Below are positions 1 through 24,787 of a stretch of 64,000 bases of DNA, in pieces. Position numbers and translations under genes: made by a program. The stretch spans positions 2,752,001-2,816,000 of the forward strand of contig OZ240241.1 of the NCBI GenBank assembly GCA_965198115.1. Direction: 5' to 3'. Below the pieces are notes generated by a model. The model saw only the letters and a program-made list of their open reading frames with translations, searched no databases and was not told the origin of the DNA. This stretch comes from Candidatus Latescibacterota bacterium (GTDB lineage Bacteria; Latescibacterota; UBA2968). How positions within the stretch are numbered: position 1 is the stretch's first letter; every line of letters begins with the position of its first letter.

Positions 1-1
1 G

Positions 2-130
2 GACTTCCGGGTCCGCTACTCGCGCTCTCTCACCGACTGGATAGTCGTCGATGAGGGGGCACGGCTCGACTACAGGTACGCGGCGGGCGGCGTTGTGTTC
101 TTCTCTCTAGGGGTCCACGTCTTCGACTGA
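2..130 (+). CDS. 3' end of a hypothetical protein entering the window (DFRVRYSRSLTDWIVVDEGARLDYRYAAGGVVFFSLGVHVFD*)
   Basis: Open frame 2 from the window edge to TGA at 128-130; alternating hydrophobic pattern and near-terminal Phe resemble a beta-barrel C-terminus (weak). Confidence 0.35.
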   Translation, partial: DFRVRYSRSLTDWIVVDEGARLDYRYAAGGVVFFSLGVHVFD

Positions 131-601
131 CCACACCCCGATCCTGGGTAGGCACCCTCTAGTGGGCCCTGGAGCCCGAGCATCCGACCCGTCCGGCTCG
201 TCCAACCAAGCGGTCCGCCGCGAGACCGCCCGGACCGGGCGGGCCATCCGTCAGGCGGGGCACCCGGGTGCTCGGGGAGTATGGCGACCGACAGGCCTGC
301 CTCAAGCGGATCGTCGAGTTGAAGGACCTCCACCGATTCTCGAGCGCCGGAACGATGATCGACGGCCTCAACGGCACGGCGCACGAGACGGCTCCCTGGA
401 GGCGGATCTTGAACGCGGATCGGCGAGGGTGGGTGCTGATCGGCGAGTGCACATCAGACATGTGGAATCCACCGTCGTTCAGGAGTTCCAGATAGGTTCA
501 TAACATCCTGTAATTGCAACGCTTTAGGCCGTACATCCCGCGTCTCGACCCGCCAGCGCCGTCCCTTGTAATCCACTGCCATTCCCCGTTATGATTGGGG
601 A

Positions 602-930
602 ATGGATAATGTGATGACTCCGCCCGCCGTGCGCTGGAAAACCAAGCCGAAGGGCCGCCATCCCCACAAGGCGCTGTCGGCCGCCTTCGTGCGCACCGCC
701 CCGGTCGGCCGACACTGCGACGGCAACGGCCTGTACCTCTACGTACAGCGCACCGGAACGCGAAGCTGGATTCAGCGGCTCGTGATCCGGGGCCGCAAGC
801 GCGAGATCGGACTCGGCAGCGTCGCCCTAGTCTCGCTGGCCGAGGCCCGCGAGCAGGCGCTGGCCAACCGCAAGCTCGCACGCGCGGGCGGCGACCCGCT
901 CGCCGAGAAGCGCCGTTCCGTGGGCATACC
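602..930 (+). pseudogene. Truncated P4-like tyrosine integrase (Arm DNA-binding domain only)
   Basis: GRHCDGNGLYLYV..GTRSWIQR..GRKREIGLG..VSLAEAREQA..GGDPL is the integrase arm-binding domain; homology stops at GIP (about 930) and the catalytic domain is absent. Confidence 0.85.
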
Positions 931-1125
931 CGGTCTGCCACTGCCTCCAGACCCAACGGGATCAACGCCTGGATCACCGACAAACGCGTCTCCAAATCGA
1001 TGACATCGCCCTCAACCTTGACTTCACCATCGCCTACAAATAGCTTCTCCATCTGGGCTCCTTTCTTACGGGTATACGCTCCTACACGTCTACCCAACGT
1101 AAGTTTGGAGCCCTCTAAGTTTCAC
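930..1125 (-). mobile_element. 5' fragment of an IS256-family element (different from the two full IS256 copies)
   Basis: Minus-strand MEKLF...IDLETRLSVIQALIPLGLEAVAD resembles the N-terminus of IS256/mutator transposases; cut by IS1182 on one side and fused to the integrase on the other. Confidence 0.55.
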
Positions 1126-1129
1126 CTAG

Positions 1130-2511
1130 GAGCCTGTCGGGTTACACACCCGGAAGCTCGTTGAGATTAAGTCCAGCTGAGTCTGTCAGCGACCGGTTAC
1201 CTTCGTTTTTTCCTTGAGCCGAGTTCCTCTTCGGGATCAGGTAGCCAATGAGAGTCGATAGAGTTTCAGAAGGTTGTGTGTGAGACAGATCAGGTTCCAT
1301 TCTCTGATGACTTTGTGGATTCGGCGGAATGAGAATCGGGTGAAGTTCCGAACGGATTTGATCTGTCCAAACACGGGTTCGATGATCTGTTTTCTTTTCC
1401 AGTAGGTGCAGCGACCTTTCTGTGTGAGAAGCTTTCTCGCCATTTTGTCTTTCGTCGTTGCGCCCTTGGGGATCCGTCCCCTGGGGCAGGTCGCGATGGG
1501 CGTTCCATGTTTCTGTTTTGTCGTCGCCACATAGAGGTCGACGCCATCTGATTGAACCTGATCGACCTGACTTTGGTTGAAGTATCCGGTGTCGGCAGTG
1601 AGGTGCTTGGGTGTCGTGCCGCCCATATTCGCTCTGATCTGGTTGACCATAGGTGTCATCTGGTTCTTGTCATCAGCTTCTTGGGTGACGTCGGCAGCAA
1701 CGACAATCTGGGCCTTGTCATCCACAGCAGCTTGGCAGTTGTAGGCTTGAAGGAATTGGCCCCCTGAGACCATGATCCGTGAGTCGGGATCGGTGAAGTT
1801 CAGTTGTTCCTTTCAGTCGGGCTCTTTCGATGGAGGCTTGGGCTTACGTCCACGACCGCCGCGGCGCTCCCGGGCCTTTACCTTCTCTTCATACGCTGCC
1901 TGCTTCTCAGGAAACTCAGCCTCCGCTTCGGCTTCGATCTCGGCTATTGCGTCGCGGATTACTTTGAGTCGAGTCTCCCGGTGCTGCAACTCCTCGGGCA
2001 ACTCGTCGCCGCGGTTGTCCTTTCCGTAGAGTTCGTCTTCGGCCGCGTCAGTGGCTTCGGCCTCGGTCAAGAGTCTGCGCACTTCGGCCTCGATCTCGGC
2101 TTCTTTCTTCTTCATCCGGCCGTAGCTCATCGCTTTGTGTTTTGAGGCATTTGCTTTGACTTTCGTGCCATCCAACGCCACGTGTCCCAGCTTCACCAGA
2201 CCTGCCTTCACGCAGAGACACAGCACTTGCCTGAACAGACCTGAGAGGGCATCCAGATGCCGTTGACGAAAGGTCGATATCGTGTCGTGATCAGGATGCT
2301 GATCCAGGCTGAGCACACGGAAAGCAACCGAGTCATAGGTCGCACGCTCGATCTTGCGGGAACTCCTGATGCCTTCACAGTAACCATACAGCAGTAGGCT
2401 CACCATCATCCGGGGATCATACGGTGGCTGGCCACCTTGAGACCCATCGTAGGTCTCGTAGATCGCGGACAAATCAAGTTGTCCGACGATATCCAGAATG
2501 AAGTAGGTCAC
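1130..2511 (-). mobile_element. IS1182-family element, 5'-deleted; transposase has an in-frame stop
   Basis: GQPPYDPRMMVSLLLYGY..SSRKIE, LDGTKVKANAS, TDPDSRIM, ADTGY, RKQIIEPVFGQIK motifs; ORFs 2511-1813 and 1773-1237 are in the same frame, separated by TGA at 1813-1815; end ...ACAGGCTC at 1130 abuts CTAG (1126-1129); left end and first codons missing. Confidence 0.9.
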
Positions 2512-2999
2512 TCGGGACGCCGTCCCATCTCTCCGTCCATAAGAAACAGGCCGTCGCCGCTGTCCCCCAGGAGCTTAAGCTTTCCTACTGCTTCATTTGT
2601 CAGCGTCTCCTCTTTTACCTGCGCTTCCACAAACCACTGCAAAAAGACATGGCTAGCGTGATCCCGGTGCTGGATGCTGATCTCCACCAGCCTGTTGATT
2701 TGGGCGGAAGCCTTCATCTCGTGTAAGTGTGCGATCTCGAATGCCTCCAGCGGTTCGTCCCACTTCACATCAGGAGCGTCTAACTCGCTCAGCTCCACCG
2801 TGCCTTGCCGTTCGATAATAAAATCGAAGATCTTCATGGCGTGCACCTGCTCCTGCTTAGCCTGCACCCGCGCCCAGTGGGCAAACCCGCGCAACCCCAT
2901 CAGTCTGAACTTCGCAGACATGGCCAGGTAGTTGTATGTCGTGAAGAATTCTGCATTCAGCTGCCTGTTGAACTCGTTCTGAATAGTTTCGTTGATCAT
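2508..2999 (-). CDS. ftnA: Non-heme ferritin (FtnA-like)
   Basis: ATG 2999 with GAGGA RBS; NAE17..Y24LAM..E50QVH53AMK..HE94..FLQWFV..Q127..E130 ferroxidase layout, 163 aa. Confidence 0.9.
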   Translation of the reverse strand: MINETIQNEFNRQLNAEFFTTYNYLAMSAKFRLMGLRGFAHWARVQAKQEQVHAMKIFDFIIERQGTVELSELDAPDVKWDEPLEAFEIAHLHEMKASAQINRLVEISIQHRDHASHVFLQWFVEAQVKEETLTNEAVGKLKLLGDSGDGLFLMDGEMGRRPE

Positions 3000-3315
3000 T
3001 TGAGAATCCTCAGCGAAGGAGGCACGAATGGATATACATCTCTCATTGAGAAAGGGAGCAAAACCGGGAATCGTGACGCTTCGGCCATAGTCCAGATCCA
3101 CTCCTTCAATTCGGGGCGGCCTCACCGGGCCCTCGCAAAATTAAAGGAGTGGGGGCACAATTGTTAGCTAAACAGCTGCTGCTTGCAGGGGCCACCAGCC
3201 TGCGTTTCAGCGAACATTCATTTGAGTGTATGAAGCGGTGTGCAACATTATCCAGCCTCACTTACACACACACCCCATAAACATTCAGTTATCTTACATA
3301 TTATATAATTATTGC

Positions 3316-3344
3316 TTGCCATTGACTTGACTGCTCGATAAATT
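3316..3344 (+). promoter_or_regulatory. Putative sigma-70 promoter TTGCCA-N17-TAAATT preceded by an AT-rich tract
   Basis: Hexamers at 3316-3321 and 3339-3344 with 17-nt spacing in the most AT-rich part of the region; predicted start about 3351. Confidence 0.4.
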
Positions 3345-3770
3345 TTGATCGAAATGAGGACAACCTCACGGCAAGCCGCCCAAGAGGTCTCTCGCATTGA
3401 AGTGTACTTCTTTCCGCGTCAACGGAAGATACACTCCGTGAAGGCAGCCAGGAATGAAGTGACTTCAACCGAGTTTAGATGGAATCCGTCAGACCGCGGG
3501 CGTGAGTTGCGGGCCGAACGCCAAATGAAAGGAGGGACCTTGCCACCTGGCTTTTTCTCAGTGCCAATCAAGGATGCGCCGAGACCCTCAAAGATTGGCG
3601 CTAAAGAATCCTCGCCTCAATTGGGCGAAGCAGTTTAAGGTTCGATCTCGGCATCGGCGCGAGTCCATCGTTCGGATCATCAGATGGAACGTGGGTTTGA
3701 TATCGAACGATGCAAGTAGGACAATCGGGTATGAGAAATCGGACCCGATCGGCTGTACGCAGGTTTATAG

Positions 3771-3993
3771 GACCGGTTCGTGTAGATCCCCCTTCGGCGG
3801 CTTCCTGATCGCTTTAACGTCAAACCCCAACGTTTCCCCTGGTCAGATGCCGCTGCACGATCTGGCAGCAAGATGGATTGGCTATGACCGGTTCGTGTAC
3901 ACCTTCGGCGGCATATCCGATCGCTTCAAACGTAAACCCCAACGTTTCCCCTGGTCGGATACCGCGGCACGATCTGGTAGCAAGATCAGATTG
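3771..3993 (+). repeat. Imperfect tandem repeat, two units with 115-nt period, each folding as a long hairpin
   Basis: GACCGGTTCGTGTA at 3771 and 3886; shared core AAACCCCAACGTTTCCCCTGGTC and GCACGATCTGG.AGCAAGAT. Confidence 0.9.
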
Positions 3994-4083
3994 ACTTCGA
4001 ACCATCATCAGGAGTGGCCTCATTACGCTACCTCGCGACGATTAGATTCTTGTCCAGTTGAGGACCAGCGATGGAAGAAAGTC

Positions 4084-4130
4084 GAAGCCGCATTCACAGG
4101 CACGTATTGGATGCGGCTTCATTTTGTTTG
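4084..4130 (+). terminator. Intrinsic terminator-like hairpin
   Basis: GAAGCCGCATTCA / TGGATGCGGCTTC 13-bp stem followed by ATTTTGTTTG. Confidence 0.6.
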
Positions 4131-4211
4131 TCCACGGAACTTCCATACCCCGTGACGAAAACAACAGAAAGGGTTTGAATCGGGTATAACGAGAGCAGAG
4201 GGGTATGCAGA

Positions 4212-6475
4212 ATGAACGGTCGCGAATCATCTCCTTGGCAGGAAAAGGCGGTTCAAGCCTACATAGCCGATGTAGCCCGACACCCTCGCCTTTCTCGTAG
4301 CGAGGAAAGCCTTCTTAAAGACCGGCTGCAATCCGGAGATCCGGCAGCCCGCCGGCGTCTGATCGAAGCCAACCTGAGATTCGTCATTGCAGTGGCCCAG
4401 CAGTATGCCAACCGAGGGATGCAGTTCTCCGATCTCATTAGCGCGGGAAACCTGGGCTTGATAGCCGCGGCCGGAAGATTCGATCCAAAAAGAGGATTCC
4501 GGTTTATCTCGTACGCCGTCTGGTGGATCAGGCAGGCGATTCGCGAGGCCATTCGCAATGGGGGGCAAACGATCAGACTGCCGGCCAGCCGAATCGATCT
4601 GCTACATCACATTGCGAGGTGGAGTTCAGGTCAATAGGTGTGTAAAAGAAATCAGGCGGCCATCTTCCCGGCTTCGACCTGCGGTCCGGTTGAGTGTTTC
4701 TGATCGTAGACTTGTTGTAGCAAGTGTGGCGCGGTGAGTTTCCTGAATCGGCTCTCTGCGACCTTGAGCGTACGCCAGATGAGAGTCGTGGCGTTCCTGA
4801 CTTTCTTGAATCGCCTGGCGGCGTTTGTGCGAAGCCGAACGGAAGCAAAGGGGCTCTCGACGACGTTCGTGGTTCTCAGGTGTTTCCAGTGTTCCTTCGG
4901 GAAGTCGTAGAACGTGACCATCCGATCCCAGTCTCTTTCGAGCGTCTCCACGGCGGCAGGGAACTGTGAGCGATACCGTGCGGCAAAGCGTTTCCGGAGC
5001 TTCTCGGCCTCCTTTTTCGTGCCGGCATAGGGGATCTGGACGAGCAGTGCGCGGGCTTCAGCCTGTGCACGCTTGGCGACCTTGTCGAGCACGTTGAGGA
5101 TCTTGTGGTTCCAGCACCGTTGTTGCCGGCTCTCTGGCCAGACCTGATCAACGGCCGCCCAGATGCCCATATTCCCGTCCGCGGCGATCAGGACAGGATG
5201 TTCGAGCCCGCGATCCCGGAGATCCCGGAGCACCGTGAGCCAGGATTCTGTAGACTCTCGATAACCGGGTTCTATCGCCAGGATCTCCTTGCTGCCGTCG
5301 CTCATCGCGCCGATCACGACCAGCAGACACGCCTTCTCGCGCTCGAGCCCGGCTTTGACGTAGATGCCATCAGCCCAGGCGTAGACCAGTTCGCGATTAT
5401 CCAGACGCCTTTCTTTCCAGTCCTGGAAGTCGACCTCCCACTTCCCTCGAAGACGAGCGATCGAGGTCGGCGAAAGCGGCGCGCCATCACCGAGCAGCGC
5501 ACGCAAAGACAACTCGAAGTCGCCCTGGGAGAGACCGTGGAGATAAAGGTCGGGAAGCAGATCTCCAATGGCCCTGGTTCTCCGGGCGAACAGGGGGAGG
5601 ATGCGGCTTTCAAACCGCTCTTCCAGACCACGAACCCGGGGACGCCGGACCTTGATCGTTCCGCAGCTCGTCGAGAGACGCCGGGGCTTGCCGTAGCCGT
5701 TCCTGTAGCCCGTGGAGCTATCGACCTCGGCTCGGCGCTCATACCACGACCGGCCCAAGAACGCGGTCGCCTCCTCCTCCAGAATGGACTGGAACCGGCC
5801 CTGGATCTCTTCACGGATCCAATCGTCAACCGTCTCCCACGTCGGCATGGACTTCAATGGGGCTCTATGCGTATGTTCCTTCACGGCGATCCTCCTTCCC
5901 AACCGGGCCTCTCACCCGGTTTTGTGTGAATCAACTATCTCACGGGAAGGGTAGGGTCGCCCTTTCTCTTTTTCCACACCTTTTGATTATAGCTCGCGAG
6001 GTGTACTGAGGATCTTGTTCAGTTCTATCAAGGCGGGGGGCACGAAGGTTTTGCTCCGACCCACGAGGAGGTCGCAGATAAATGTGGAATAACCACGGAG
6101 CACTTTGAAGAGACGCTAGCCATGGGGCAAGGTGTATTCTCCTTGAATTACCGACCCGACGGTAGTGAAGGAAAGGAGTTGATAGACATTCTTGCCGATC
6201 CGAATCAAGACCTCCCTGATCAGGTCATGTCCGTCGAAGCCCGGAGGCAGGACATCGAAGAAGCACTGTGCGGTCTCGACGATCGGGAAGGTAAGGTCAT
6301 TAGGCTTCACTTCGGACTGGAGGATGGATCGTCCAGAACTTTGGCAGAGATCGGTTCGATTTTCGGTCTGTCTCGTGAGAGGATCCGCCAAATCAAAACC
6401 GAAGCGTTGAGAAAACTGCGAAACCCAAGTCGAGGCGCCAAGCTGTTTGTGCACTACGCCGAAGCGATAAATTGA
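4212..6475 (+). pseudogene. RpoD/SigA/RpoS-family sigma-70 factor interrupted by IS256
   Basis: Region 2 LIEANLRFV..DLISAGNLGL..FDPKRGFRFISYAVWWIRQ (4212-4621) and region 4 TLAEIGSIFGLSRERIRQI (6004-6475); removing the IS and one TSD restores one frame of 293 aa. Confidence 0.93.
4622..5995 (-). mobile_element. IS256-family element copy 1 (1374 bp; transposase 4652-5902)
   Basis: YRNGY, WADGIY, ADG, QRCWNHK, RTTNVVES motifs; imperfect IRs GAGTTCAGGTCAATAGGTGTG / GAGCTATAATCAAAAGGTGTG; 8-bp TSD GCGAGGTG at 4614-4621 and 5996-6003. Confidence 0.97.
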
Positions 6476-6560
6476 ACCACGGTGTGACGTGCCCACAGGA
6501 TTCCCACAGAGCTTGGGCACCTTCTCCCTTTCTGATGGTCCGTAGCTAAGGAGGTACCAG

Positions 6561-7222
6561 ATGGGGGTCATAACGATCTCAAGGCAATATGGCAGTGGCG
6601 GACTCGCCATCGGCCGTATGGTCGCCGAAATCTTGAGCTACCGATATATCAACAAGGACCTGGTGATCGAAGTTGCCCGTGAAGCGGAAATACCACTGTC
6701 TGACATAGAGCGATTTGACGAGTGCCCTGAGTCCGCTGCCACGCGTCTAGTGAAGAAGCTCCTTCTTTCACCCTACCCTTCGAATTTTACAGGGGAATCG
6801 ATCGAGGAGCCGTTTCAGTACGCCTTTCGCGATGGCTTTGGATCGACGATCCTCGTGTATCCCTGGCTGACGAGGATGATTTCGTTCGGCTGACCCAGCA
6901 AGTAATGATCAGGATGGCAAATCAGAATAAGATTGTACTTATAGGGCGTGGGGGTCAGGCCCTGTTATCGGGTCGATCAGATACGTTACACGTAAGAATC
7001 TTTGCCCCATTTGAGCATCGCGTTGAAGCTGCCATGGCCGATGACGATATTTGCAAGGAAGATGCTGAGTGCCTCATACGAAAGCTTGACGGAAATAGAG
7101 AACGATATCTCAAGCGGCACTACGCAATCGATTGGAAGGACCCACGACACTACCACATGACCGTCAACACAGGCCTCGTAGATATAGCAAAGGCTGCGCA
7201 GATGATCGTTTGTGCGGCCTAG
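6561..7222 (+). pseudogene. Cytidylate kinase-like family protein, one frameshift (about 6780-6850)
   Basis: VITISRQYGSGG P-loop variant; second frame VLIGRGG..LHVRIFAP..DWKDPRHYHMTVNT; AGGAGG RBS. Confidence 0.85.
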
Positions 7223-7649
7223 TCTCTGGCCGTCAAACCGAAAAACGACCATCGGACGAGATACCCCACTGCGAGTTCGGAGAAAAACACCAAGGGTTCC
7301 ATCCCAGTCGCCAGCTGGGTGGCGATCTTCGTTCCTGGGATGGGTCTGGAGAAGGTCGGTGCATCAGCCTGGTCATCTCCGATAGGAGAACCACGCGTCA
7401 GCGATCGCGTATGGCCTCTTCGAGCGGATGGTCGATGCTGGGGGTCGCTCGAAGCGCCCGACGTTCCGGCTCGGCCATTCCGTAGAACATCTGTACTTCA
7501 CACGCGTGAGATGGAAGCCCCATAGCTTCGACGAGCACGAGCGCGTGTGACAGCGAGCGCAGGCTATGACTGGTGAAGGCGGGTGAGAGCTGTTCAATGG
7601 GTAACTGAAGCGGTTCACTCGCTTGAGCTATTGGAATAGTAATTTAAAT

Positions 7650-9069
7650 GGCTCTATCCGGGTTTCTCAACGGTGAAACTATAGAATGACAAGGTCATAG
7701 ATCGTTCCCTACGCTTGGTTGTGTGTGTAGGACAATCAAAGCGAAGGGGGTGCGACCTATGACCGGGAGCAGATTACTATCGAAACTGCTGAGATTCAAG
7801 GGGTTCCGTGTTGTCAGCTGGTGGTTTGAGGGGAGAAGCTGTTTCGTCATCGCCGTAAAGCCACATAAGAATGGTTGTTGTTGTCCGGAGTGCGGCCGTC
7901 GAGGTAAAATCGTCCGCACAATGCCCCATCCGCGTCGGTGGCGTGACATTCCGGTGTGCGGGTGGAGGGTCTGGCTTCTCTACCATCCTCGGGAGATTCG
8001 GTGTCCTACCCACGGTCGTGTGGTCGAGGAGATTCCGTGGGCGGAGCGGTTCTCTCGGGTGACGTATCGCTTCGAGTATGCCATGCTGCGCTACTGCCAG
8101 ACCATGACGCAGAAGGCGGCGTCCGAGTTGCTGCGCATCTCTGCCTCGACGCTGTCGGATCTCCTTCACCGATCCATCACGCGGCTTCGTGAAGGTCATC
8201 GTATCCGAGGGCTCAAAACCATCGGGATCGACGAGATCTCCTACGCCAAGCGTCACAGGTACGCCACGCTCGTTTACGATCTGGACCGCTCCTGCGTGGT
8301 GTGGGTTGGCCGCGGCAGGGCGCGTAAAACGATCGATCGGTTCTTCACAGAGGCTCTCAGTCCCTACCGGAGATCCAAGATCGAGTGGGCCTGCTGCGAC
8401 ATGAGCGAAGCTTACATCGGAGCCATCCAGGAACACTGTCCGAATGCCAAGCTGGTCCTCGATCGCTTTCACATCGTCAAGGCTCTCAATGCCGCCGTTG
8501 ACGAGGTCTGTAAGGACCAGTGGCGTAAAGCTGCCCCGGATGAGCGCAAAGCCATGAAGGGCCTCCGATGGCTCCTCTACCGGCACTCAGCGACACGCTC
8601 CAGAGGGGATACTCGGACACTCAAAGCACTGGAGAAGGCGAACTACCGAATCTATAGAGCCTGGAGACTCAAGGACGAGTTCGAGCAGTTCTGGGAATAC
8701 AAAGCGCCCTGGGCTGCCGAACGCTTCCTGAAATGCTGGACGACGTCCGCACTCAGAAGTCGACTTGAACCCCTGCGAAAGTTCGTCAGGACCCTGCGAC
8801 AGCACTTCTTCGGCGTCCTCGCATTCGTGAACACGCGTCTTACCAACGCCATCGCCAAAGGCCTCAACCGAATCGTCCAAATCGTCAAGAACCGAGCCAG
8901 CGGATTCCGCACACTCGACGCATTCAACGATATGATCTTCCTTACCGTCGGAGACATAAACATCCCTGAGCAGATTCCGAAGAGGTTCCGCACACTCTAA
9001 CCGCGCCCCCATGCCAGGAACCACGGCACCTTCACCCACTTCATCTCGTTGAGAGATCCAGATATAGCC
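7650..9069 (+). mobile_element. ISL3-family element copy 1 (1420 bp; transposase to 9000)
   Basis: CPECG..CPTHG zinc finger, IGIDE, CCDM, DRFH motifs; ends GGCTCTATCCGG / CAGATATAGCC; flanks ATTTAAAT and AATTAAAT (near-TSD, 1 mismatch). Confidence 0.97.
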
Positions 9070-9144
9070 AATTAAATACATGTGTGCCTGACGGCGAGGC
9101 GGAATTATGTCTCAAACACATCGTAAACGGGTGTAGAGTTTAAA

Positions 9145-9169
9145 TTTGCGAAGCGAGCGGCTTCGCAAA
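9145..9169. other. Perfect 10-bp inverted repeat (terminator or operator)
   Basis: TTTGCGAAGC-GAGCG-GCTTCGCAAA. Confidence 0.5.
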
Positions 9170-9281
9170 CTTCATCTTGTCACGACCCCTCGATCCAGTA
9201 CCTTAGGTACCAGGATAGATCGCTCTGCGAGGAGAGCGTAGACCTCGGATCGTAAGATTCTGACGTGAGAAAGGAGTTGCT

Positions 9282-10207
9282 ATGAAATCGAGAGCCAGGC
9301 CAGGGTTAGCGGTCGTGTTCCTCCTGACCACGTCCGTGTTCGCTTCGGAGGACGAAATCCGCCCTCCTCACGTGTTCGCCAAGGTGACGGACTGCCAGAA
9401 TCAGATCGAACAGATCCGACTGGAGATGGGAAAGCCTGAAAACCTCCCCCTCGGAGTCGAAGTGAATGACGCGGAACCGCGGGAGGTCTATTACCAAGCT
9501 CTCACGCTTTTCACCAAAGCCAACCGCCTCTCGTACGATCTGACACGTACCGACGCAACTGCTCCGGCTGTGCCCACGGGCCCGATCGAGCCGAAGCACG
9601 TCTTCACGTCGTCAACGCCGCACTCGAACGATTCCTCCACATTCAAGATGTGCTCGGAATCCGACCGAGTGAACTGGCCACGCCCCCCGAACCAGGGAGG
9701 GAGCCGACCGACGTGTTCAACGCACTCCTCGAGACCAATCGTCAGTTGAATGTGTTGCTCGACAGCCCCGTCGCCCCCGCCGACGTTTTCCAGCAAGTGA
9801 CCAATTCCGTAGGTTACGCGGCTTCGCTATTGTCAGCCTACACGGGCGCCCAGCAGATTCCGGATGTCCCCGAATTCGAAGGGCAGAAGCGTCCCTTGGA
9901 CGTCTACCGCAGGTTGCTGAATTGCGTGAGGCTGACCGAGCAGATCGTCCAGGCGTCGAACCAGAAAATGCTCTTCCTCGTGGATCGAAACATCGATTTC
10001 GATGAGGTGACGCCGAGCGATGTCTACGATCTGGCATCGTTGATTCTATCGGAGCTCTCCTACCTGCACTCCGTTTCACCCAGCCTATCTTCGCCTCAAA
10101 GGGCGTACAATCCAGGTCGAAAATTCCCGTCTCACGTCTATCAGCGAGCAGGAATCCTCGAAGCTCAACTCGAAAGCATTCTCGCCCAGCACCAAAGCGC
10201 CGAGTGA
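9282..10207 (+). pseudogene. Exported hypothetical protein with repeated P-x-D/H/E-V-F/Y helical motifs; frameshift about 9606
   Basis: AAGGAG RBS and signal peptide; ORFs 9282-9749 and 9650-10207 join by restoring one C (TTC CAC GTC GTC AAC). Confidence 0.7.
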
Positions 10208-10229
10208 TCGACGCAAAGCAAGGGAAGGG

Positions 10230-10783
10230 ATGAATGTCTGGGGTAAGACCTTTTCGCGCCGGGCGCTAGTGAGCCTTATCGCGATCGTACTCAGTCTGGG
10301 AGCACTGGTCTACACGCGCTTCATCGCACAGCGAGTTTCGCGACTGCGTGGTCCAACGGTGGTCACATCGGCCAGCATGTTGAGTGGCATCCGTGGCTCC
10401 ACTACAAGCTTGAGAGGATGGATTCTTCTGGGCGATCCCATCTTTAGACAAGAACGAGAGCAGGCGTGGAAGGACGAAATCGATCCGGCGCTCAGGCGTC
10501 TACAATCGCTCAGCGAGAACTGGACCAATCCCGACAACGTCGTCAGACTGTCCGAGATTTCACAAATCCTCGAAGGATTCCGATTCATCCAGTGGTGGAT
10601 CGAAGACGTCGCCCACACACCAGGCAATCGCCCCGCGCTGCACGCTCTACGAGACGCGGGTCAGGCCGGCTGCTCGAGAAGCGATGACGACTATAACGAC
10701 GATGATCGATCTGGAAAAATGAACCAGGGTGGTCAGTTACCGACTCTGGCCGACTTCCGCGCGGCCCTCGCTCTCAGCGAGAT
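10230..10783 (+). pseudogene. N-terminal sensor part of a methyl-accepting chemotaxis-like receptor; frameshift about 10660, truncated by the ISL3 fragment
   Basis: TM helix followed by PT..SLRGWILLG..ER..AW..WTNP.N..RL periplasmic helical-bundle pattern; sequence switches to IS DNA at 10784. Confidence 0.6.
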
Positions 10784-11011
10784 CAACCATTCTTATGTGG
10801 CTTTACGGCGATGACGAACCAGCTTCTCCCCTCAAACCACCAGCTGACAACACGGAACCCCTTGAATCTCAGCAGTTTCGATAGTAATCTGCTCCCGGTC
10901 ATAGGTCGCACCCCCTTCGCTTTGATTGTCCTACACACACAACCAAGCGTAGGGAACGATCTATGACCTTGTCATTCTATAGTTTCACCGTTGAGAAACC
11001 CGGATAGAGCC
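10784..11011 (-). mobile_element. Partial ISL3 copy (left 228 bp, inverted)
   Basis: Reverse complement of 7650-7877 including the left IR ending ...CGGATAGAGCC at 11011, next to an A6 run. Confidence 0.95.
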
Positions 11012-12528
11012 AAAAAAGGTAGTCTCCTTGTACAAGTGTTTGTTTTTCCCTACATTAGGGCTGACACATCAAAACAACCACTTGGAAGGAACTACCGTGA
11101 TAGAACCTAGTCAGATCCGGTTACCATTCGCAAGCATTTCGGGCAAGGTAGTTGAGGCTGATTTTGCCGGTGGCGCCGTCAGGAGTGACGGTGGAGTTCT
11201 GTTGCTTCGCGCCCTTGAGTCTCAGATGGGATTGATCGCCAGAATGGTAGATGCTTTGCGAGATCGTCGTCACCCAAGCTATATCGATCACACGCTTTTG
11301 GATCTTGTGAAGCAGCGTGTTTTTCAGATCGCTTGCGGCTATGAAGATGCCGTCGATTGTGATGATGTGCGACGCTCGGATTTGTATCGGCTCGCACGGG
11401 CTTTTGTAGACGGGTTCATCGCATCGTATGACCAGGCACCCCCAAGCATCATTCTCGATATCGACGACACGGATGACCCAACGCACGGTGCGCAACAATT
11501 TTCACTCTTCAACGCGTATTACAATGAACACTGCTATATGCCGCTACATATCTATGAAGGCCAAAGCGGCAAGCTCATTACGACGATCTTGAGACCCGGG
11601 CATCCGACGAACGGTAAACAGGTCGTTTCTATTCTCAAGCGCTTGGTGGAACACCTACGCGGATCTTGGCCAAACGTGGAGATCATCGTTCGCGCAGACT
11701 CAAAGTTCAGCTCACCAGAGATGCACGATTTCTGCGAAGACAACGGTATCTACTACGTTCTGGGCCAGGGCGCCAACTCCAAGCTCAAAGCGGCTGGACA
11801 AAACCTGATGGACCAAGCGCTACGTCTGAGCGAGCATAAGGAGACGATTCGCTTGTTCTCATCCTTCTCATATCAGGCTGGCACCTACCGGCAGCCTCGC
11901 CGGATCATTCACAAGGCTGAAGTCACAAACGGCGAAGCAAATCCAAGATACCGCGTGACCAATTTACAGAGTAATCGAGACGGCTTTATCTATGATCGTA
12001 TCTACTGCGCAAGGGGACGCACGGAAGGCTTCATCAAGGACCACAAAACATTCCTTCACTCCGATCGAACATCGTGCCACAAGTTTGAAGCCAACCAGTT
12101 CCGACTCTTTCTACACAGTGCTGCATACGCCTTGCTTCACGCACTCCGATCACAGGGACTCAAGGGCACCGCGTGGACCAAACCTCAGGTCAACACGATA
12201 CAGAACCGTTTCCTCAAAATCGGCGCGAGAGTCATTGAAAGCGCACGAAGAATCCGATTCCATTTTCCAACATCGTATCCACTCAAAAACGTCTTGGTGT
12301 CAATCATCACCAGGCTCGAAACGAACACGCAGTAACAACGCCGATCTATACCGGGGACAGCTATGTACACGTCGCAAAACAACACCTGTTCCGGACGAAA
12401 ATCGTGACTCTTGCGACTCGTAGAGACCGCTTACGGGACCTTGGACATCCGAAGAAGCCGAGAACAAATCCTGTGCGTGATCACATCACTCCAAAACAAC
12501 CTAAACTCAAATTCATGCATGATTCAGG
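11012..12528 (+). mobile_element. IS1380-family element, left IR missing; transposase (GTG 11097-12335) has an internal in-frame deletion
   Basis: F.GG..SDGG.LLL, ACGYED, LDIDDTDDPTHG.Q, VRADS, YCARG..E..IK, RTSCHKF.ANQFRL motifs; right end ATGCATGATTCAGG at 12528 followed by CTAG. Confidence 0.9.
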
Positions 12529-21938: not shown

Positions 21939-23358
21939 GGCTCTATCCGGGTTTCTCAACGGTGAAACTATAGAATGACAAGGTCATAGATCGTTCCCTA
22001 CGCTTGGTTGTGTGTGTAGGACAATCAAAGCGAAGGGGGTGCGACCTATGACCGGGAGCAGATTACTATCGAAACTGCTGAGATTCAAGGGGTTCCGTGT
22101 TGTCAGCTGGTGGTTTGAGGGGAGAAGCTGCTTCGTCATCGCCGTAAAGCCACATAAGAATGGTTGTTGTTGTCCGGAGTGCGGCCGTCGAGGTAAAATC
22201 GTCCGCACAATGCCCCATCCGCGTCGGTGGCGTGACATTCCGGTGTGCGGGTGGAGGGTCTGGCTTCTCTACCATCCTCGGGAGATTCGGTGTCCTACCC
22301 ACGGTCGTGTGGTCGAGGAGATTCCGTGGGCGGAGCGGTTCTCTCGGGTGACGTATCGCTTCGAGTATGCCATGCTGCGCTACTGCCAGACCATGACGCA
22401 GAAGGCGGCGTCCGAGTTACTGCGCATCTCTGCCTCGACGCTGTCGGATCTCCTTCACCGATCCATCACGCGGCTTCGTGAAGGTCATCGTATCCGAGGG
22501 CTCAAAACCATCGGGATCGACGAGATCTCCTACGCCAAGCGTCACAGGTACGCCACGCTCGTTTACGATCTGGACCGCTCCTGCGTGGTGTGGGTTGGCC
22601 GCGGCAGGGCGCGTAAAACGATCGATCGGTTCTTCACAGAGGCTCTCAGTCCCTACCGGAGATCCAAGATCGAGTGGGCCTGCTGCGACATGAGCGAAGC
22701 TTACATCGGAGCCATCCAGGAACACTGTCCGAATGCCAAGCTGGTCCTCGATCGCTTTCACATCGTCAAGGCTCTCAATGCCGCCGTTGACGAGGTCCGT
22801 AAGGACCAGTGGCGTGAAGCTGCCCCGGATGAGCGCAAAGCCATGAAGGGCCTCCGATGGCTCCTCTACCGGCACTCAGCGACACGCTCCAGAGGGGATA
22901 CTCGGACACTCAAAGCACTGGAGAAGGCGAACTACCGAATCTATAGAGCCTGGAGACTCAAGGACGAGTTCGAGCAGTTCTGGGAATACAAAGCGCCCTG
23001 GGCTGCCGAACGCTTCCTGAAATGCTGGACGACGTCCGCACTCAGAAGTCGACTTGAACCCCTGCGAAAGTTCGTCAGGACCCTGCGACAGCACTTCTTC
23101 GGCGTCCTCGCATTCGTGAACACGCGTCTTACCAACGCCATCGCCGAAGGCCTCAACCGAATCGTCCAAATCGTCAAGAACCGAGCCAGCGGATTCCGCA
23201 CACTCGACGCATTCAACGATATGATCTTCCTTACCGTCGGAGACATAAACATCCCTGAGCAGATTCCGAAGAGGTTCCGCACACTCTAACCGCGCCCCCA
23301 TGCCAGGAACCACGGCACCTTCACCCACTTCAGCTCGTTGAGAGATCCGGATATAGCC
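21939..23358 (+). mobile_element. ISL3 copy 2 (1420 bp)
   Basis: Near-identical to copy 1; left flank ATAAAAAAA. Confidence 0.97.
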
Positions 23359-23367
23359 TAAAAAAAA

Positions 23368-24787
23368 GGCTCTATCCGGGTTTCTCAACGGTGAAACTAT
23401 AGAATGACAAGGTCATAGATCGTTCCCTACGCTTGGTTGTGTGTGTAGGACAATCAAAGCGAAGGGGGTGCGACCTATGACCGGGAGCAGATTACTATCG
23501 AAACTGCTGAGATTCAAGGGGTTCCGTGTTGTCAGCTGGTGGTTTGAGGGGAGAAGCTGCTTCGTCATCGCCGTAAAGCCACATAAGAATGGTTGTTGTT
23601 GTCCGGAGTGCGGCCGTCGAGGTAAAATCGTCCGCACAATGCCCCATCCGCGTCGGTGGCGTGACATTCCGGTGTGCGGGTGGAGGGTCTGGCTTCTCTA
23701 CCATCCTCGGGAGATTCGGTGTCCTACCCACGGTCGTGTGGTCGAGGAGATTCCGTGGGCGGAGCGGTTCTCTCGGGTGACGTATCGCTTCGAGTATGCC
23801 ATGCTGCGCTACTGCCAGACCATGACGCAGAAGGCGGCGTCCGAGTTACTGCGCATCTCTGCCTCGACGCTGTCGGATCTCCTTCACCGATCCATCACGC
23901 GGCTTCGTGAAGGTCATCGTATCCGAGGGCTCAAAACCATCGGGATCGACGAGATCTCCTACGCCAAGCGTCACAGGTACGCCACGCTCGTTTACGATCT
24001 GGACCGCTCCTGCGTGGTGTGGGTTGGCCGCGGCAGGGCGCGTAAAACGATCGATCGGTTCTTCACAGAGGCTCTCAGTCCCTACCGGAGATCCAAGATC
24101 GAGTGGGCCTGCTGCGACATGAGCGAAGCTTACATCGGAGCCATCCAGGAACACTGTCCGAATGCCAAGCTGGTCCTCGATCGCTTTCACATCGTCAAGG
24201 CTCTCAATGCCGCCGTTGACGAGGTCCGTAAGGACCAGTGGCGTGAAGCTGCCCCGGATGAGCGCAAAGCCATGAAGGGCCTCCGATGGCTCCTCTACCG
24301 GCACTCAGCGACACGCTCCAGAGGGGATACTCGGACACTCAAAGCACTGGAGAAGGCGAACTACCGAATCTATAGAGCCTGGAGACTCAAGGACGAGTTC
24401 GAGCAGTTCTGGGAATACAAAGCGCCCTGGGCTGCCGAACGCTTCCTGAAATGCTGGACGACGTCCGCACTCAGAAGTCGACTTGAACCCCTGCGAAAGT
24501 TCGTCAGGACCCTGCGACAGCACTTCTTCGGCGTCCTCGCATTCGTGAACACGCGTCTTACCAACGCCATCGCCGAAGGCCTCAACCGAATCGTCCAAAT
24601 CGTCAAGAACCGAGCCAGCGGATTCCGCACACTCGACGCATTCAACGATATGATCTTCCTTACCGTCGGAGACATAAACATCCCTGAGCAGATTCCGAAG
24701 AGGTTCCGCACACTCTAACCGCGCCCCCATGCCAGGAACCACGGCACCTTCACCCACTTCATCTCGTTGAGAGATCCGGATATAGCC
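23368..24787 (+). mobile_element. ISL3 copy 3 (1420 bp), head-to-tail with copy 2
   Basis: Separated from copy 2 by TAAAAAAAA (23359-23367); right flank ATAAAAAA. Confidence 0.97.

Follow-up and report, generated by a model that had tools for sequence, protein, structure and literature searches.

A structured RNA family in Latescibacterota with an SD site, a start-Pro-Pro micro-ORF and a covarying hairpin: a candidate stand-alone ribosome-pausing RNA

Short ORFs whose proline codons lie just ahead of a terminator-type hairpin or overlap it, in a geometry that is sensitive to EF-P, have been described for pyrL, including a polyproline-pyrL reporter (PMC5021804), and for Salmonella mgtL (PMC12856214). 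These leaders precede a fixed regulated gene. The RNA family described here has the same kind of short proline ORF and hairpin but variable, often convergent neighbours; it differs further in placing Pro-Pro at codons 2-3, in its tandem modules, in its 5' rod and, in one copy, in a 3' extension of 500 nt. The fthC uORF motif (PMC11109978) likewise has a conserved Shine-Dalgarno (SD) site and start codon between hairpins and ends in a terminator; it is confined to Streptococcus and to one downstream gene, and by the definitions of that paper the present family is nearer to an sORF/sRNA candidate. In rnTrpL (PMC6614838), which is tied to trpE(G) and to Trp codons, there is a precedent for a leader-peptide RNA that also acts free, as is proposed below.

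The general outline of the family (rod-shaped, at least 200 nt long, with its own promoter and terminator) is also that of 6S RNA (RF00013; PMC8876501), Ms1 and CoRP (PMC11077062); unlike these as they are described there, it has no closing stem or central bubble and no Rfam score, its rod is dispensable, and its core is codon-like. With GOLLD, ROOL and OLE, whose multimers are built by kissing loops (PMC12286853), it shares size (640-780 nt), the combination of a conserved with a variable part, and candidate complementary or palindromic loops; it differs in having no Rfam match, no tRNA nearby, no representative found in viral contigs or phage records and a core of only ~270 nt. Neither an Rfam match nor the typical context of GOLLD, ROOL, OLE or HEARO (tRNA islands, prophage, HNH gene) was found. 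A conserved linkage to one sigma clade, as would be expected of a sigma-associated RNA of the dCas12f-sigmaE type (PMC12259090), was not found for this family.

The locus lies in the window (the whole stretch of DNA that was analysed, 64,000 nt of Candidatus Latescibacterota contig OZ240241.1), in a gap between a ferritin gene and an RpoD/SigA-like sigma gene (Table 1). A preliminary description, made from the letters alone, had placed here a candidate large RNA of no known family, either stand-alone or an array of modules, set between a promoter-like site and a terminator-like hairpin in a gap without credible protein. A stand-alone large RNA of no known family is supported and the array is not. 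The RNA of the window copy is real, and is folded better than its shuffles: on the + strand the 780 nt of 3351-4130 reach -291.5 kcal/mol (z -4.0; none of 20 shuffles is as stable), the - strand fold having z -2.0. No shuffle did as well as the native sequence for either the 5' rod (z -4.1) or the 3' extension (z -3.9, and -3.4 once the terminator is removed); the single modules first drawn by hand are mostly unremarkable when folded alone (z -0.2 to -2.6). The hairpin at the end of the block is indeed a strong terminator (Table 1), and the two long ORFs of the gap have no Pfam match. The promoter-like site is present too: taken alone it is at chance level (2 found, 1.0 +/- 0.9 expected), and it recurs at the equivalent position in 25 of the 29 loci examined, many of them near-identical kin, mostly in the form TTGACA-17/18-TATATT or TACATT. 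Rfam gave 0 matches at E<=5 for window 1-12000 and two chance matches to snoRNAs for 3340-3600; 14 homolog loci had 0 gathering matches. What we take to be resemblances to T-box, SAM-I and c-di-AMP RNAs have no Rfam support. SRP, RNase P and tmRNA were considered as identities and rejected, all three being located elsewhere.

Table 1. Features of the RNA and its surroundings, in window coordinates
Feature	Position	Strand	Evidence and remarks
Sigma70-type promoter, TTGCCA-17-TAAATT	3316..3344	+	TTGCCA 3316-21, TAAATT 3339-44; predicted start near 3351
Whole RNA, ~780 nt (~640 nt in one-unit homolog)	3351..4129	+	Folding; RNA-library contigs 3363/3364 to 4090/4103
5' rod	3369..3516	+	P0 3369-72/3513-16, P2 3377-81/3498-3502, P3 3386-90/3491-95
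Shine-Dalgarno site AAAGGAGGG	3528..3536	+	G-rich block at -10 to -6 kept in 42 loci
Micro-ORF TTG-CCA-CCT-GGC..., fMet-Pro-Pro-Gly, 32 codons	3540..3638	+	Conservation confined to first codons
Family hairpin, starting ~+21 from start codon	3561..3601	+	Covariation, pair probabilities; U-tract absent in window copy
Small hairpin, palindrome CAATTG at loop	3610..3630	+	Candidate kissing loop
3' extension hairpin	3666..3712	+	Pair probabilities; loop complementary to repeat-unit loops
Short hairpin, like second hairpin of genus g4 copies	3724..3749	+	Pair probabilities, comparison
Repeat unit 1, rod hairpin	3768..3882	+	Sequence repeat
Repeat unit 2	3883..3992	+	One compensatory change versus unit 1, CTGATC/GGTCAG -> CCGATC/GGTCGG; missing from main RNA homolog
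Intrinsic terminator	4084..4129	+	z -3.85, probability ~1; RNA contigs end inside
Ferritin, divergent neighbour	2508..2998	-	Pfam Ferritin
5' half of RpoD/SigA-like sigma paralog	4212..4621	+	Pfam Sigma70_r2
IS256-family element inside sigma gene	4622..5995	-	Pfam Transposase_mut; 8-bp target duplication 4614-21 / 5996-6003
3' half of sigma paralog	5996..6475	+	Pfam Sigma70_r4

In the window copy a single SD-start-hairpin module is followed by further hairpins over ~500 nt and by a terminator of its own. In its full fold the base helices of the rod (P0, P2 and P3) have pair probabilities of 0.77-0.88. The helices first drawn by hand fared unequally: GTGCCAATC/GATTGGCGC (pair probability 0.6-0.9) and CATCGTTCG/CGAACGATG (0.6-0.96) hold, and the inner helices of the two repeat hairpins are well populated in the partition function; GGTTCGAT/ATCGGACC is unfavoured (0.05 or less), CTTCGA/TCGAAG has probability 0 and overlaps the terminator, and AGCCAGG/CCTGGCT, also of probability 0, clashes with the covariation-supported fold and has two 3' bases changed in the RNA homolog described below, with no partner change among the differences listed. 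In place of an array of ~110-nt modules there is a single duplication (3768-3882 and 3883-3992, 83% identical over 119 nt): the five supposed modules align with 43% column identity, and the main RNA homolog carries a single repeat unit. The loop at 3683-3700 is complementary to the repeat-unit loops (3821-3829 among them), with a predicted duplex of -18.7 kcal/mol and 58 of 5000 shuffles as good; this is the best of 45 pairs, one hairpin's self-pairing aside, and significance is lost after 45 loop-pair comparisons. The 500-nt extension is probably an added hairpin scaffold, in which kissing loops would perhaps join hairpins; multimers held by kissing loops, by analogy with the large RNAs named above, are a lead only.

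Parts of the stretch occur in 22 of the 23 sequencing runs listed, and four RNA runs were compared in detail. A ~89% identical homolog appears as contigs of 547-638 nt in three sponge metatranscriptomes of one study: one of 638 nt (depth 67) maps from its first to its last letter to 3364-3870 plus 4003-4103, one of 630 nt (depth 40) maps to 3363-4090, and one of 547 nt (depth 60) starts at 3423. Two of the three thus span from ~3363 into the terminator; IS256 contigs listed in the same runs have depths mostly of 2-9. The joint 3870 -> 4003 corresponds to a single repeat unit, and minor contigs spanning 3727-4065 and 3919-4072 indicate that the two-unit form exists too. A further run, from a second study, has cover over 3483-3721; beyond 3600 two of its contigs diverge. 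None of the homolog's differences listed (40 of 112) falls inside P0, P2 or P3; in the micro-ORF there is a synonymous Pro change at 3548 (CCT -> CCC) and a Gly -> Asp change at 3550 (GGC -> GAC). In the RNA runs, where the absence of a contig is uninformative, there is almost no cover over ferritin or over those parts of the sigma gene that are unique. The homolog contigs are consistent with a discrete, abundant RNA and fall short of proof, since contigs give neither strand nor level and DNA carry-over is possible.

Judged by model searches and covariation, the window copy represents an uncatalogued family of structured RNAs in its long form. One weak BLAST match (L004), the one true match from DNA searches of 61 and 168 genomes, yielded a search pattern, which picked up mostly one copy per genome in the window's own family and several in the order. 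The first 250 nt of the window RNA are a member of a family present in 65 of 132 class genomes by model R2 (56 of the 65 at E<=1e-5, many being training sequences), the class being assigned as Latescibacterota by the labels of neighbour proteins (Candidatus Latescibacterota or Handelsmanbacteria, two relatives). With model R1 (E<=0.05), matches occur in 66 of 151 genomes of the phylum, among them 28 of the 29 from the own family; neither model found the family in most of genera g7, g27 and g31. Within the window's own genome, BLAST and nhmmer searches with the gap returned the internal repeat only, and a paralog at genome position 4508929 was picked up by the family model alone. This paralog, the second, short copy of the genome (G000:C1:4508780-4509050, L252), stands directly before a CBS-domain gene, has no clear U-tract, and is the best candidate for a cis-acting version. 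Two further candidates (L002, L003) were discarded as lying inside coding sequence, and those weak matches to the 3' extension that were inspected are chance. Exact-pattern scans had 1 true case among 27 matches in genome contigs, 2 true and 1 doubtful among 29 in metagenome contigs, and 0, 0, 2 (chance) and 0 matches in viral contigs; blastn against phage and plasmid records gave no family match. Seven marine Verrucomicrobia records (L090-L092, L094, L104, L107, L112) match the 3' strand of the rod plus GGAGG-N-GTGCC; L090 reaches E 0.0014 with R1, having been selected with the same pattern, and the set is either chance or a distant relative.

Literature searches found no description of the family, and supplements or further papers could contain one. 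The main text of a genomic-language-model survey (10.64898/2026.10.21.760802) mentions no sigma, proline, uORF, CBS, ferritin or Latescibacter, and its supplements could hold the cluster; the main text of PMC11109978 has no mention of Latescibacter. An unannotated RNA family is present in about half of the genomes of a class, with an unusually legible design that is directly testable, and its 640-780-nt form is an added candidate for the short list of large bacterial RNAs.

The family core consists of an SD site, a start codon (ATG, GTG or TTG), CCR-CCN (Pro-Pro) and a covarying hairpin from ~+21; a covarying 5' rod usually precedes it, and the whole is flanked by a sigma70 promoter and a terminator. 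In the base helices of the rod, 11 of 15 pairs have two-sided changes among 21 sequences, and covariation is 0.485 against 0.261 +/- 0.020 for shuffled alignments (0 of 500 as high; slid controls <=0.198), the structure having been derived from the same alignment and kin not being independent. The +21 hairpin has two-sided changes in all 9 of its pairs among 32 sequences, with covariation of 0.594 against 0.246. In many copies the rod ends in a two-hairpin tip; it is missing in genus g30 and some other copies. The +21 hairpin of single-module copies is a U-tailed terminator. Tandem SD-start-hairpin modules, two or three in number, occur in G156, G047, G035 and G052; the G156 locus (L248) has three SD-ATG modules, two of which encode Met-Pro-Pro-Asp-Cys 116 nt apart, and no 5' rod. 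Four CBS-linked loci (L306 in G030, L307 in G018, L239 in G005, L241 in G009) have an extra upstream micro-ORF ending Pro-Asp-Thr/Ser-stop, followed by the Met-Pro-Pro module.

The SD site and the 32-codon micro-ORF (3528-3638), like the IS256 element that splits the sigma gene, had gone unremarked in the preliminary description. Codon use was tabulated for 42 loci, left from 65 candidates after setting aside 9 without the start pattern, 3 dropped by hand (among them L271, which on second inspection seems to be a true member) and 11 near-identical kin. Codon 1 is ATG in 39, GTG in 2 and TTG in 1; codon 2 is CCA in 32 and CCG in 10; codon 3 takes all four CCN endings (CCG 26, CCT 11, CCA 3, CCC 2); codon 4 is Asp in 16 and Gly in 12. 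Part of this conservation arises by construction, because the family searches were seeded on ATGCCACC and the start-finder required [A/T/G]TG-C. Base +21 is G in 36 of the 42, and the stretch from start codon to hairpin is without indel. Independent support comes from the two codon changes of the RNA homolog (CCT -> CCC and GGC -> GAC) and from fourteen model matches that had not been used in training, which comprise seven with ATG-CCR-CCN and the hairpin, one with Ser-Pro and six that look like chance. Two of the 9 excluded loci, L256 (G010) and L263 (G007), are real paralogs that have the same 5' rod and GTG-GCG instead of Pro-Pro; in them the hairpin is shifted exactly one codon outward, and they offer natural controls. 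Among the long ORFs of the window's genome, Pro-Pro at codons 2-3 is found in 4 of 1146; the genome has the anti-SD in its 16S, EF-P and CsrA. Put to the leader-peptide test, the family has a conserved SD, a start codon and stall-prone codons. Its micro-ORFs run to 6-32 codons, and past codon 5 nothing is kept beyond the bases that the hairpin dictates. It is therefore the act of translation, rather than the peptide, that looks selected. The start codon of the window copy, TTG, is a weak one, and the full fold predicts partial pairing of the SD-start region.

What stands beside the RNA varies. Over 53 loci the next gene encodes a CBS protein, epimerase, dehydrogenase, redoxin, PTPS, sigma (2 loci) or others, and no consistent co-oriented downstream gene was found among them. 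Pfam identifies a convergent next gene at 8 loci from 4 genera, and most of genus g4 has one too (opposite-strand ORFs). A ferritin gene is upstream in G114, G116 and the window, a sigma-type gene is upstream in G060 and G054, and no tRNA was found near the RNA. The functional tie to the adjacent sigma gene that had been proposed for the RNA is not borne out: 1) sigma lies directly downstream in only 2 of the 53 loci, and the sigmas concerned, those of the window and G042, are not sisters in a 66-row tree (both are long branches of unsure placement); 2) no such RNA was found upstream of the 29 best sigma homologs and the 9 own paralogs, nor any conserved linkage to one sigma clade; 3) the window's sigma gene is split by IS256. 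This sigma has no close relative among the sequences searched (best identity 47%), and none was found in viral contigs.

What might such an RNA do? An SD site, a start codon, two Pro codons and a hairpin at fixed distance likely make a ribosome pause right after initiation. The ribosome would load at the SD site and start codon and begin to translate the micro-ORF. By the toeprint rule, a P site at +7 puts the leading edge of the ribosome near +22; with the second Pro codon (codon 3, base +7) in the P site, the leading edge would come to lie near +22, where the hairpin begins, and the slow chemistry of Pro-Pro-X would fall together with the hairpin's predicted position at the mRNA entry channel. 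Pausing or drop-off at Pro-Pro would presumably depend on EF-P and prolyl-tRNA, and the 5' rod probably leaves the SD site accessible and protects the RNA at its 5' end. The account in PMC4140641 has PPG pausing with Pro-tRNA in the P site when EF-P is lacking and PPD among the pauses seen in vivo; it also has most PPX motifs giving no strong pause in vivo, upstream residues being of consequence. The tripeptide has no upstream residues to offer, and this counts against the present proposal.

We favour, with confidence that is evenly balanced, a stand-alone RNA that would load a ribosome, pause it at Pro-Pro against the hairpin, and so hold, or report on, ribosomes and EF-P. Convergent neighbours, tandem modules and a terminator that is out of reach in the window copy (at 4084, >440 nt past the stop of the micro-ORF at 3638) argue for a free RNA, and it is on these that our even weighting of the stand-alone reading is based. 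Present in abundance, the RNA might, when growth is slow, hold ribosomes or EF-P or make its own stability depend on translation capacity. One can carry the thought further, into territory that we regard as speculative and rather improbable: a class-wide RNA that traps ribosomes as fMet-Pro-Pro complexes jammed on the hairpin, a translation brake released by EF-P, and hence a 6S analogue for ribosomes where 6S is unrecognised, its long form multimerising through kissing loops as a ribosome-holding scaffold. The known proline-sensing leaders each act on a single neighbouring gene; a free-standing one, if true, would add a new means of sensing or holding ribosomes. As it stands, this is a new RNA family and a variant of the leader-peptide RNAs that sense ribosomes; it would become categorically new if a trapping role were shown.

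An alternative that we think possible, though on balance unlikely, is a cis-acting, translation-coupled attenuator of the pyrL type: fast passage through Pro-Pro would melt the +21 hairpin and allow read-through, a paused ribosome would permit termination, and the free RNA would be the terminated leader. The U-tailed +21 hairpins of single-module copies suit this reading, as do the micro-ORFs, which often stop at codon 7 or 10 on the hairpin's 5' strand; a CBS-domain gene is directly next in five loci by Pfam and in four more by sequence, and in the window 83 nt separate the terminator from the sigma start, a promoter scan having found no site between. A polyproline stall upstream of the pyrL terminator is described as raising termination without EF-P (PMC5021804). 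Yet the next gene is convergent in at least five genera, downstream function is inconsistent, and both the window copy and the two-module copies lack a U-tract at the +21 hairpin, their terminator being far beyond the micro-ORF. Attenuation may be restricted to the CBS-linked subfamily: its copies look cis-acting, and for them the pyrL (PMC5021804) and mgtL (PMC12856214) leaders, so far as these papers describe them, lend support to an attenuator.

Decidedly less probable is a divergent 6S-like RNA, whose rod would mimic an open promoter and bind RNA polymerase holoenzyme, with GGAGG...CCAC as the 3' central-bubble motif; a 6S-like decoy had also been suggested from the first inspection. RF00013 has no match in the window's genome, nor in 114 others of the class; SRP, RNase P and tmRNA lie elsewhere; and the family has mostly one to three copies per genome with their own promoter and terminator. 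The sequence GG(A/C)GGACA(C/A)CCAC is present in sub-threshold 6S matches from two distant families of the phylum. The 6S reading keeps some weight because RF00013 matched none of the class genomes searched, only six genomes of two distant families, all below cut-off. It fails on structure: the covarying helices make up a 5' rod and a local 3' hairpin with an open SD-start linker between them, and the closing stem and two-sided central bubble that define 6S in the account of PMC8876501 are missing. Partial complementarity of the 5' and 3' ends can be made out by eye in some copies only, copies of genus g30 and others have no rod at all, model R1 does not match the six 6S-like loci, and the codon pattern is left unexplained. 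Those six loci (L197-L202; 23-43 bits, with promoter-like and terminator-like flanks) are themselves probably true unannotated 6S RNAs.

It is more doubtful still that the RNA serves as a stable mRNA with the short peptide as its product: the SD is strong, there is a start codon, and many copies would yield peptides of 6-12 residues starting MPP(D/G), but length varies from 6 to 32 codons and, hairpin-dictated bases aside, nothing is conserved past codon 5. Least credible is a CsrA sponge whose GGAGG sites titrate CsrA, which the genome encodes and for which tandem GGAGG modules exist in several copies: GGA is not enriched (18, with 13.8 expected), the GGAGG sites lie outside short hairpin loops (CsrB and RsmZ sponges have many GGA motifs in hairpin loops), and start codon, Pro-Pro and fixed hairpin distance go unexplained.

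Window 1-12400 and 22000-24700 form an IS-rich island, with transposase fragments at 1237-2511 and the IS256 element in the sigma gene; a transposase-like ORF lies at 7723-9000, two more ORFs equal to it in length (425 aa) are found at 22012 and 23441, and there is another transposase-like ORF at 11028-12335. After the sigma gene comes a cytidylate-kinase-like gene (6561-7222) split in two ORFs; an intact gene of this kind near the RNA and sigma in G042 (L189) hints at a shared island origin. The window's genome (G000) has ~11 RpoD/SigA-like paralogs without region 1.1, several of them on very long branches. Between the ferritin start and the RNA promoter, at 3098-3152, there is a 14-bp inverted repeat (93%), possibly a regulator site or a hairpin.
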